Notes under the pieces: model-generated
The model's database searches: none
Seen by the model: the letters and a program-made list of their open reading frames with translations, nothing else
Told to the model about the DNA's origin: nothing
Source: a virus
Length of the DNA: 64,000 nucleotides
Virus record (IMG/VR): IMGVR_UViG_3300045988_131485
Strand: one strand, 5' to 3'
In this document: positions 22,117-22,888 of the stretch, piece by piece
Layout of the letters: each line of letters starts with the position of its first letter
How positions within the stretch are numbered: the stretch's first letter is position 1
Position numbers and translations under genes: made by a program

Positions 22117-22240
22117 TGGAGCGGCAGGTAGGACTCGAACCTACGAATGGCAGCTTGGCTTCCTTGAACATTGCTGTTAGCGGAACTCCTCGTTTCGCAT
22201 TGTAATAGGGCTGCTGTGTTGACCACTTCACCACTGCCGC
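22117..22240 (-). ncRNA. tRNA-like gene C (Gly-type acceptor identity, CCA encoded) with a 55-nt insert in place of the anticodon loop
   Basis: GCGGCAG/CTGCCGC acceptor stem, U73, CCA; D arm GTGA-AGTGGTCA-ACAC; T arm GTAGG-TTCGAGT-CCTAC; the GCAGC/GCTGC stem closes the insert, which contains AATGCG-hairpin-CGCTAACAGCAA. Confidence 0.6.
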
Positions 22241-22245
22241 ATGAA

Positions 22246-22266
22246 GCTCGTCTTTCCGAGCCGTCA
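22246..22266 (-). ncRNA. third TGACGGC-hairpin element with GAAAGA loop
   Basis: The minus strand reads TGACGGCTCGGAAAGACGAGC and ends 5 nt before tRNA-like gene C. Confidence 0.4.
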
Positions 22267-22379
22267 CAACCCAGTTCAAGATATTTGGGTTGAATATCTG
22301 GCGTTTACCGTCAGCATAGACATAAACGATCCCAAAGCCCTATGCCTATCCGCCCATTAGCAGGGACGGCTTCTGCTTG

Positions 22380-22496
22380 TGCCAGGGGTGGGACTCGAAC
22401 CCACGACCACGGGATTAACAGTCCATAGAAAGTTGCTGTAAGCGTCTCAACAAGACACGCATTAGTACGCGCTCTGTCCGACTGAGCTACCCTGGC
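22380..22496 (-). tRNA. tRNA-Asn(GUU) interrupted by a 43-nt insert (22425-22467) in the 5-prime strand of the anticodon stem
   Basis: GCCAGGG/CCCTGGC acceptor stem; GCTC-AGTCGGACA-GAGC D arm; removing the insert gives CGGGA-CTGTTAA-TCCCG; T arm GTGGG-TTCGAGT-CCCAC. Confidence 0.7.
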
Positions 22497-22549
22497 GTAC
22501 GCCCCGCCGTAGCGGGGCTATTTTGCATGACCCCTCTTATGTGCATTTT

Positions 22550-22717
22550 CTACTCAAACCCAGCCGTATAATACGGCAAACAGTTATACCGATCGGTTCG
22601 GCTTCCCGCACTATTATGGCTGGCGGCGAACCAGGTTTTCACCGTACTGTAAATTATCGGGGTCGAGATAATGACATACGGCAAGGAACAACAGACAAGC
22701 AAACCCATATTCAACAT
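22550..22717 (-). CDS. 55-aa hydrophobic peptide inside the inverted segment
   Basis: ATG 8 nt after AAGGAGGTG on the minus strand; MLNMGLLVCCSLPYVIISTPIIY...; corresponds to the tail of ORF-track entry 22550..24016. Confidence 0.4.
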   Translation of the reverse strand: MLNMGLLVCCSLPYVIISTPIIYSTVKTWFAASHNSAGSRTDRYNCLPYYTAGFE

Positions 22718-22764
22718 TAGTCTGTCGCACCTCCTTTTTTTTGTAACTACACTAAGTAGCTTGT

Positions 22765-22888
22765 TGCAAGGAGTGGGACTCGAACCCACGACAATCAGTT
22801 CCCTTTTTACATAGCTGTTAGCGCAACTGGGGGAGGGGAACGTTACGCATTTTTTATACTGGTGCTCTACCAACTGAGCTACCCTTGC
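22765..22888 (-). ncRNA. tRNA-like gene A with a 58-nt insert in place of the anticodon loop
   Basis: GCAAGGG/TCCTTGC acceptor stem; GCTC-AGTTGGTA-GAGC D arm; T arm GTGGG-TTCGAGT-CCCAC; the CCAGT/ACTGA stem closes the insert, which contains AATGCG-hairpin-CGCTAACAGCTA. Confidence 0.6.

Follow-up and report, generated by a model that had tools for sequence, protein, structure and literature searches.

The locus described here raises the question of what function may be served by tRNA-shaped genes whose anticodon arms are filled with additional sequence. It lies in IMG/VR virus record IMGVR_UViG_3300045988_131485, a stretch of 64,000 nucleotides that is referred to as a whole as the window. A first-pass annotation had noted three such genes between positions 22117 and 22888, adjacent to a presumed TROVE/vWA protein, and had offered three readings: protein-spliced mini-introns, tRNA-like scaffold RNAs partnering the protein, or tRNA genes disrupted by a small repeat. 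The second of these is the best supported by the present analysis, through the predicted fold of the protein, the linkage of its gene to the RNAs, and the recurrence of the inserted element in its mRNA leader. Judged from comparative sequence analysis, and on a slight balance of probability, four RNAs of this locus (A-D) would be stable, tRNA-derived, Y-RNA-like non-coding RNAs that partner a Ro60-like protein encoded downstream.

RNA A (22765..22888, minus strand), RNA B (22380..22496, minus strand), and RNA C (22117..22240, minus strand) each give a full-length match to the Rfam tRNA model RF00005 (49.8, 46.3, and 49.5 bits, respectively, the last covering 22120-22240) that is interrupted by a 54-56-nt insertion in the anticodon arm, in agreement with the annotated description of three tRNA-shaped genes. 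The 7-bp acceptor stems, D arms, and T arms of all three are canonical (U8, A14, G18G19, and a TTCGA T loop), and none of the three has an uninterrupted 5-bp anticodon stem with a 7-nt U33 loop. The anticodon stem of RNA A (CCAGU/ACUGA) encloses a 58-nt insert containing the module described below (22809-22855) and has a Pro-like remnant, (A)GGG-A, beside its 3' strand. The stem of RNA C (GCAGC/GCUGC) encloses a 55-nt insert (module 22168-22205) and retains GCCAA beside its 3' strand, the acceptor stem of this RNA is of Gly type (G1-C72, C2-G71, G3-C70, U73), and its CCA end is encoded. The module of RNA B (22430-22467) branches off the 5' strand of the anticodon stem between nt 28 and 29, and the remainder (a 3-bp stem and the 7-nt loop CUGUUAA, with the Asn anticodon GUU) completes a three-way junction. 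RNA D (21442..21552, plus strand) was found with a custom scan for acceptor stems and T arms; it combines a 7-bp acceptor-like stem (UGGGAGC/GCUCCUA) and a T arm with degenerate D and anticodon regions, carries the module GUGU...ACAC-GCA-CAGCAA at 21462-21500(+), and is kept in relatives L019, L022, and L161, but it has no match to the Rfam tRNA model at E <=10 when 20500-24000 is scanned. Default ARAGORN searches of the window for tRNAs and tmRNAs miss A-C and report no tmRNA; the sole call is a canonical tRNA-Ser(GCU) at 21268..21358(+) (Rfam, 50.7 bits), which leads the RNA array in nearly all relatives. When introns are permitted, ARAGORN forces A34 anticodons (AAA, AAT, ATT) at arbitrary splice points, and this result was set aside as uninformative.

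Comparison with orthologues demonstrates that the tRNA parts left in these RNAs are constrained. B-type orthologues carry the module at nt 28/29 or 29/30 and a residual 3-bp mini-stem that covaries (AU/UA/CG/GC; alignment A4), closed by a 7-nt loop of the form Y/A-U-N-N-U-A-A with the anticodon GUU, UUU, or UGU depending on the phage. Two of these orthologues (L015:3463 and L022:3292) have a residual anticodon loop of 8 nt (CUUUUUAA) rather than 7. C-type orthologues retain (G/U)CC-AA beside the 3' stem strand while the acceptor end varies (A1-U72, A73), and A-type orthologues retain NGG, then G or A, then A beside the stem. Canonical tRNAs of equal anticodon coexist with the module-bearing ones in several loci (Asn in L194, Thr in L195, Asn in L211), indicating that the module-bearing RNAs are not needed as decoders. 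Some tRNA-like RNAs of the relatives are arranged differently: one (L022:3659-3775) has a hairpin-GAA-CAGCAA module in the D loop and not in the anticodon arm, and two others (L015:3700-3803 and L038:674-776) have a different, two-hairpin insert without CAGCAA.

The module itself opens with an A-rich stretch that ends in AAU, continues with a 7-bp hairpin and a spacer of 3 nt, most often UAA, and closes with the motif CAGCAA. In the three copies and dozens of orthologues, the hairpin begins with the pairs G-C, Y-R, and G-C and has a loop of 3-14 nt; the GCG/CGC blocks recognized in the first-pass annotation correspond to these first three pairs, and the shared architecture of hairpin, spacer, and CAGC(A/U)A that it described holds. 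The motif has the variants CAGCUA and CAGCCA, and its AGC is nearly invariant. Across 33 distinct modules, 93% of stem cells are paired, a figure that drops to 65% upon shuffling and to 30-45% if the partner strand is displaced, and compensatory changes occur in six of the seven pairs (covariation score 0.736 versus 0.241, with none of 500 shuffles reaching 0.736). The hairpin is thus strongly supported, as had been supposed, and the covariation recurs when 76 distinct sequences of other loci are used. When a covariance model of the module (R1) is run unfiltered over the full 64-kb window, it matches RNAs C (43.2 bits), B (37.5 bits), A (36.8 bits), and D (21.8 bits, E 1e-3) together with two weak local sites, all in one 1.8-kb stretch, and no convincing copy is found elsewhere in the window, so that the module is not a generic genome-wide repeat.

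Within the same 1.8 kb, the signature of a helix end followed by NNA and CAGCAA occurs eight times, and it occurs nowhere else in the 64 kb. The eight module copies counted in the first-pass annotation therefore exist, but three of them are built differently, the motif being enclosed by a long-range stem. The copies are those of RNAs A, B, C, and D, a free-standing short module (M0), and the stem-enclosed elements E1, E2, and E3. M0 (22905..22934, minus strand; GCGU-ACAGAGCA-ACGC-AGA-CAGCAA) lies ~20 nt upstream of RNA A, gives a weak R1 match of 11 bits, and belongs to repeat families D2 and I23. E1 (21199..21255, plus strand), directly upstream of tRNA-Ser(GCU), is an exact motif match of the form GAGGCGC-UAA-CAGCAA-(34 nt)-GCGUCUC, with a weak R1 match at 21167-21217 and a 7-bp long-range stem read from the sequence. 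E2 (21759..21813, plus strand; GGGGCAC-UAA-CAGCAA-(32 nt)-GUGUCCC) matches the motif with one mismatch, likewise has its stem read from the sequence, and is found in all close relatives. Comparison of the two arrangements identifies the helix end, with NNA-CAGCAA on its 3' side, as the unifying signature.

The third stem-enclosed element places this signature in an mRNA. E3 (22074..22109, minus strand; GGGCAU-AAA-CAGCAA-(15 nt)-GUGUCC) lies in the 5' untranslated region of the mRNA of the neighboring gene, a member of the DUF2828 family, ~30 nt upstream of the start codon at 22043. The conserved leader of relatives reads CUCUGAACAC-AAA-CAGCAA...GUGUUCCGGGUAUCUCAA, and in many relatives an element of the form AAAGRCRC-NNA-CAGCAA, 20-85 nt, GYGYCUUG is found upstream of the start codon, down to ~42% protein identity. 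Its outer blocks form a covarying long-range stem (98.6% of cells paired versus 85.6% shuffled; e.g., AAGACAC/GUGUCUU, AAGACGG/CCGUCUU, AAGGCGC/GCGCCUU), in which position 6 is G-C in 12 sequences and A-U in 18, and position 7 is C-G in 22 and G-C in 7; E1 has the same architecture. The interior of the leader element is often a mimic of an anticodon arm (e.g., UAGA-CUUUUAA-UCUA). Among 116 distinct loci, 76 contain ACAGCA within 130 nt upstream of the start codon where ~4 would be expected; control windows within or downstream of the gene give 1-13 of 116, and the opposite strand gives 2 of 116.

On the basis of its sequence conservation and covariation, the combination of helix, NNA, and CAGCAA would constitute a new conserved RNA motif. 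No Rfam 15 family matches it, and a literature search, from whose coverage subscription journals were largely absent, returned no prior description. Rfam searches at E <=10 over 20500-24000 return only tRNA, with no Y_RNA, YrlA, ribozyme, T-box, or group I intron. A search across IMG/VR with the DNA pattern TAACAGCAA-N(18-45)-GGTTCRA returned 120 stretches, mostly chance matches in coding DNA, with ~10 genuine module-bearing tRNA-like RNAs among them, several of which have a DUF2828 gene next door. A separate conserved hairpin, GACGGCYCGGAAAGACGRGC...CAUG, lies directly 5' of RNA D (21417-21443(+)) and RNA C (22240-22266(-)), where the two copies form repeat pair I2 (85% complementary). Certain relatives (L020, L022) also have this hairpin ahead of the leader, and it may act in processing or as a signal of the 5' leader. 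Scans of the RNA array for promoters and terminators gave only background levels.

The protein encoded beside the RNAs matches Pfam DUF2828 and DUF7788. Its N-terminal 73 codons (MSNF...MAMKWLF; 21825..22043, minus strand) cover DUF2828 positions 1-52, and the gene body (residues 70-518; 22973..24322, plus strand) encodes the remainder of a TROVE-like helical ring and a vWA domain with a complete metal ion-dependent adhesion site (DGSGS, T371, D403), the DxSxS motif, T371, and D403 being invariant among homologues. An AlphaFold model of moderate quality was built from 36 homologues (pLDDT 77, pTM 0.66), and the nine best Protein Data Bank matches to this model in Foldseek are all Ro60/TROVE structures (E 4e-9 to 1.6e-4, ~500 columns, TM 0.33-0.49). 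The top matches include the Ro60 of Thermus phage phiLo (9KOP, 9L5Y), D. radiodurans Rsr (2NVO), and 1yvr, with Xenopus and human Ro60 represented, and vWA domains rank below them. The model therefore assigns the DUF2828/DUF7788 protein a predicted Ro60-type fold of TROVE ring and vWA domain. The "TROVE/vWA" label of the first-pass annotation is apt as a description of the fold but not of the family, for there is no Pfam TROVE match, and sequence methods gave no NCBIfam family and no phmmer match in the Protein Data Bank. Homologues of the protein are very numerous: one search returned at least 8000, hundreds of phage loci carry the gene, and 265 matches fall in species-representative genomes. 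Literature on DUF2828, with subscription journals again largely outside coverage, consists of incidental plant and tardigrade mentions with no function described. In one 785-residue protein (P0002, from NCBI/ENA contigs of up to 193 kb), which is 100% identical over 93% of the DUF2828 query, the DUF2828 sequence continues past ...SGFSPNI as a phage-integrase domain, and the 3' end of that gene has apparently been the target of a further integrative element.

The split gene and the strand of RNAs A-C have a common explanation. The segment 21825-22984 (1160 bp), which holds A-C, the leader, and the first 73 codons, is inverted in the window relative to every close relative. In BLAST comparisons with at least 14 near-identical contigs and genomes it is reversed in the window only, and the other orientation is found in at least 10 IMG/VR contigs and in the genomes of two cultured bacteria, Hominicoprocola fusiformis CLA-AA-H269 and Dysosmobacter segnis BX15, whose prophage is 97% identical. 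At the breakpoints lies a perfect 12-bp inverted repeat (left, 21825..21836, AAAGAGCCATTT; right, 22973-22984, AAATGGCTCTTT; repeat pair I16) that encodes KWLF and is restricted to a clade of at least 81% identity; E2 ends 11 nt short of its left arm. Inverting the segment in silico yields an uninterrupted 518-residue protein that is 100% identical to that of L001. The minus-strand placement reported for A-C is thus correct for the window but reflects the inversion, and in the relatives the DUF2828 gene is immediately preceded, on its own strand, by A, B, C, and the leader.

No IMG/VR contig contains the inverted junction, and the one metagenome contig that does (ERZ809296 NODE-219) is probably the source of the window. 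This distribution gives no support to a recurrent switch, and the inversion is read here as a rearrangement particular to one lineage or as an error of assembly. The system is probably switched off in this window, since the first 73 codons and RNAs A-C are parted from the gene body. A second, independent inversion-split DUF2828 gene was observed at L288:2667-4670, in a contig of an uncultured Prevotella sp. metagenome-assembled genome (USJD01000001.1), where the plus strand encodes residues 134-513, and the minus strand immediately upstream holds residues 3-130 and a tRNA-like RNA with the module; the breakpoint is unlike that of the window. This independent case hints that inversion may be recurrent or programmed. 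With respect to a tyrosine recombinase for the inversion, the open reading frame (ORF) at 19883-20800 shows only a weak match to the N-terminal part of MrpR and no catalytic domain. The module was also considered as a recombination site, given its copies on both strands near the inversion, and this idea was rejected because the breakpoints are another, 12-bp repeat and the copies share one strand after re-inversion.

The linkage between module and gene is close to absolute in position and strand. In 67 IMG/VR loci with 45-80% protein identity (module cut-off E <=0.05), all 111 module matches, distributed over 44 positive loci, lie upstream of the DUF2828 gene on its strand. In 65 loci from GTDB genomes (E <=0.01) the same is true of 55 of 56 matches, the exception being the inverted gene of L288, which brings the pooled count to 166 of 167 over 132 loci. 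Rfam matches in 17 such loci are to tRNAs only, and the long, insert-bearing ones are those that adjoin the gene.

Other neighbors differ among phages, the Ro60-like gene being constantly beside the RNAs and RNA-repair genes being recurrent. In the window, the Ro60-like gene is directly followed by a cysteine desulfurase of the NifS/IscS/DndA-like type (24406..25572, plus strand; Pfam Aminotran_5, E 4e-68, with NCBIfam NifS/IscS-type matches below curated cut-offs). An ATP-dependent RNA ligase (25599..27007, plus strand; PHROG 968 "RNA ligase", weak TIGR02306) is divided between two overlapping ORFs (25599-26150 and 26108-27007) that hold PHROG 968 positions 8-147 and 174-393, respectively, a split that could reflect a frameshift, a sequencing error, or programmed recoding. 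A nucleotidyltransferase (27117-27950, plus strand) is followed by a fusion of a Pnkp-like polynucleotide kinase with an HD phosphohydrolase (27952-28866, plus strand; Pfam AAA_33, KTI12, and HD, with TIGR04075 Pnkp below its cut-off), and the pair matches PHROG 388/505. The RNA-repair block also contains PP-loop ATPases: two PAPS-reductase/PP-loop ATPase-like proteins (29409-30383 and 31265-32107), with weak, sub-threshold TtcA and MnmA matches, share the block with the desulfurase, and these genes might form a thiolation module for tRNA or DNA (DndA/DndC-like). In a relative of 67% identity, the neighbors are an AAA_33 kinase, Band_7, an RlaP nucleotidyltransferase, isochorismatase, and NAPRTase. 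Further upstream in the window, a 1041-residue fusion of N6-adenine methylase and ResIII/DEAD helicase domains (Eco57I-like; 14928-18053(+)) is followed by a Cro/C1 repressor and IrrE-like peptidase pair (18087-19121(-)), a typical prophage control region.

If RNAs A-D are partner RNAs of the Ro60-like protein, their parts can be assigned provisional roles. The tRNA body (acceptor, D and T arms, and elbow) would be processed and stabilized by host RNase P and by 3'-end and CCA enzymes, and the inserted tag (the helix end with NNA-CAGCAA) would be the handle that the Ro60-like protein recognizes. The retained anticodon features (in B-type RNAs an entire stem-loop of the Asn/Lys/Thr type, in A- and C-type RNAs an NGG or NCC triplet) would present a tRNA anticodon arm to tRNA-directed enzymes, candidates being the phage ligase, kinase-phosphatase, and nucleotidyltransferase or host anticodon nucleases. 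Through the leader copy of the tag, the protein may feed back on its own synthesis. A more specific proposal, which is unlikely on present evidence, is that the system is a bait or sensor for tRNA-targeting immunity: the tagged mimics, and the leader mimic, would be cut by host anticodon nucleases, and the Ro60-like protein would hold the cut RNAs by the tag and either offer their ends for resealing by the Pnkp and ligase of the phage or exploit cleavage or occupancy of the leader to switch on the repair operon.

The closest precedents are the Ro60 genes of bacteria and phages, which are adjoined by tRNA-like Y RNAs (Chen et al. 2014, PMC4201824), with YrlA examples in Salmonella (rsr-yrlBA-rtcBA), M. 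smegmatis, and mycobacteriophages (PMC4201824). The present locus resembles these systems in encoding a ring of TROVE and vWA type beside several different small RNAs that mimic a tRNA (D arm, T arm, and acceptor stem) and in its linkage to RNA-repair genes. It differs in the sequence family of the protein (DUF2828/DUF7788) and in the tag, which is helix, NNA, and CAGCAA here whereas the Ro60-binding motif of Y RNAs is GNCGAAN0-1G (PMC4201824). The Ro-binding stem of YrlA is built from the two ends of the RNA, and its "acceptor" is a stem-loop that is closed; in A-C, in contrast, the ends pair as a genuine 7-bp acceptor stem and the anticodon arm holds the tag. Anticodon triplets or stem-loops are kept in the present RNAs, which lie upstream of the gene, and the tag appears again in the leader of the mRNA. 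The Ro60 of Thermus phage phiLo, the best structural match to the model, binds two RNAs (Yrl1/Yrl2) encoded just upstream of its gene (PMC12135203) and is likewise phage-encoded with partner RNAs directly upstream, but its RNAs were picked by a CGAA motif and a stem-bulge-stem Y-RNA shape, not a tRNA cloverleaf, and the two proteins share 15-16% identity over the Foldseek alignment. A different RNA, tmRNA, also has ends that form an acceptor/T-arm domain and a non-tRNA domain in place of the anticodon arm; the RNAs described here have no tag frame, pseudoknots, or SmpB context, are much smaller (111-124 nt), and have a full D arm.

Several observations weigh against a Y-RNA-like role. Neither GNCGAAN0-1G nor the YrlA topology is present in A-D as read from their sequences, and Y_RNA and YrlA models give no match at E <=10, so that A-D would be analogues of Y RNAs and not members of YrlA. 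The protein has no Pfam TROVE (PF05731) match and the structural TM-scores are low (0.33-0.49). No module match was found in 23 of the 67 homologous IMG/VR loci, and four genuine module-bearing tRNA-like RNAs from the DNA-pattern search have no DUF2828 gene in the 1.6-11 kb of sequence retrieved with them (L046, L051, L106, L136; phage tRNA arrays). The evidence that ties the RNAs to the protein is genomic, and, as the loci come from related phages, part of the positional bias is shared ancestry. The conservation of triplets that agree with an amino acid (GCC/UCC together with a Gly-type acceptor, and NGG with G37 next to it) would be compatible with working tRNAs as well.

In the splicing interpretation, an endonuclease would cut around the module, the Pnkp-like kinase/HD protein and the ligase would heal and seal the ends, and the nucleotidyltransferase would repair the 3' ends, giving working tRNA-Pro, -Asn, and -Gly. 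The case is strongest for RNA B: removal of 43 nt (22425-22467) leaves, as the first-pass annotation stated, a perfect 74-nt tRNA that ARAGORN calls tRNA-Asn(GTT), with a predicted exon junction GAGCGCG^GGACUGUUAAUCC, and the same kind of excision restores every B-type orthologue. C-type RNAs keep a Gly anticodon (GCC, or UCC in relatives) with a Gly-type acceptor and encoded CCA, A-type RNAs keep NGG then G as in tRNA-Pro, and ligase, kinase-phosphatase, and nucleotidyltransferase genes are 2.6-6 kb downstream. However, the second nt after the 5' stem strand of C-type RNAs is never U and the nt before the anticodon is U in only one of eight, so that no single excision gives a 7-nt U33 loop; the same holds for A-type RNAs, and the earlier statement that no single excision restores A or C extends to the orthologues examined. 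Archaeal tRNA introns at non-canonical positions have a bulge-helix-bulge motif, are cut by EndA, and are joined by RtcB. The present inserts are similar to them in being tens of nt long, in lying off position 37/38 (including within the anticodon stem), and in having an RNA ligase gene nearby, but the ligase is ATP-dependent and not RtcB, and manual inspection, with no dedicated search for the motif, found no bulge-helix-bulge: in B, pairing is impossible between UAAU, the four nt that follow the putative 5' bulge, and CAGC, the four that follow the 3' spacer, and consensus folds of the B- and C-type alignments contain no such helix. No tRNA-splicing endonuclease was found among the ~25 neighboring ORFs scanned, a search that did not extend to the whole window or the host. 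The inserts (43-58 nt) are also not group I introns, as the first-pass annotation had concluded from their size, and Intron_gpI gives no match at the gathering threshold or at E <=10; the group I introns in bacterial or phage tRNA genes measure ~200 nt or more, have a P1-P9 fold, and sit at the anticodon loop. The module is also found in the D loop of one RNA (L022:3659), in stem-enclosed elements that are not tRNAs, and in the leader of an mRNA; this, the coexistence of canonical tRNAs of the same anticodon in the same phage, and the drift of C-type acceptor identity all speak against splicing. A search of viral contigs for an "intron-less" B gene returned a single match, an unrelated tRNA-Lys. 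Splicing can thus be accommodated for B-type but not for A- or C-type RNAs, and as a general account it is improbable, somewhat more so than the next alternative.

That alternative, also unlikely, is that the RNAs act largely on their own as baits or sensors for host tRNA-cleaving nucleases, with CAGCAA serving processing or another factor. Whole Lys/Asn/Thr-type anticodon stem-loops are kept in B-type RNAs and in many leader elements that have no tRNA body, the locus is within an RNA-repair gene set, and some module RNAs have no adjoining DUF2828 gene. Phage T4 provides a parallel, its Pnk and Rnl1 counteracting the PrrC anticodon nuclease by tRNA repair; in both cases phage tRNA genes occur together with a kinase-phosphatase and an ATP-dependent RNA ligase, and Lys-/Asn-type anticodon loops are in play, but T4 has no Ro-like protein or tagged tRNA mimics, and a role in tRNA damage or repair is putative here. 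Phage tRNAs are known to evade tRNA-targeting defenses (PMC10264068). The near-perfect linkage of the RNAs to DUF2828 in position and strand, together with the leader copy, implicates that protein, and the bait idea overlaps with a Ro60-partner role rather than opposing it. Far less probable is a mechanism based on base pairing, in which AGCAA would dock with nt 32-36 (UUGCU) of the tRNA-Ser(GCU) anticodon loop in the manner of a T-box specifier. The AGC of the motif is almost invariant, and tRNA-Ser(GCU) is the commonest canonical tRNA beside DUF2828 genes (34 of 72 loci) and co-occurs with module matches (odds ratio 4.3, p = 0.018, uncorrected for relatedness); nevertheless, the pairing comprises only 5 bp and may be due to chance, both partners are fixed so that covariation is uninformative, position 5 of the motif varies (CAGCUA, CAGCCA) with no matching change in the tRNA, and no T-box or other riboswitch model matches. 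A complementarity of UAACAG to the Asn loop CUGUUA was also noted. The remaining proposal of the first-pass annotation, tRNA genes inactivated by a small, functionless mobile repeat (of the miniature inverted-repeat transposable element or repetitive extragenic palindromic type), could account for a short hairpin unit at several scaffold sites (anticodon loop, anticodon stem, and D loop) but is rejected as scarcely credible: copies within one genome differ in their stems yet keep pairing, they have a single orientation and no copy elsewhere in the 64 kb, orthologous copies persist at ~42-100% protein identity, and the flanking tRNA features are still constrained.

The reading of A-D as Y-RNA-like partners would give the very large DUF2828/DUF7788 family a testable role, that of a Ro60-type RNA-binding ring with defined RNA partners. 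It would also widen the Y-RNA concept to complete tRNA bodies with anticodon features and open acceptor ends, with the tag grafted at varied places on the scaffold. Should the more specific bait or sensor proposal be correct, this widespread family would acquire a function in that process, and Ro-type ribonucleoproteins would be able to use complete anticodon-bearing tRNA bodies. Because the system lies among ligase, kinase-phosphatase, nucleotidyltransferase, and sulfur-transfer genes, the locus bears on tRNA cleavage and repair in the conflict between phages of gut Clostridia and their hosts, and two cultured lysogens, Hominicoprocola fusiformis and Dysosmobacter segnis, make it experimentally accessible.

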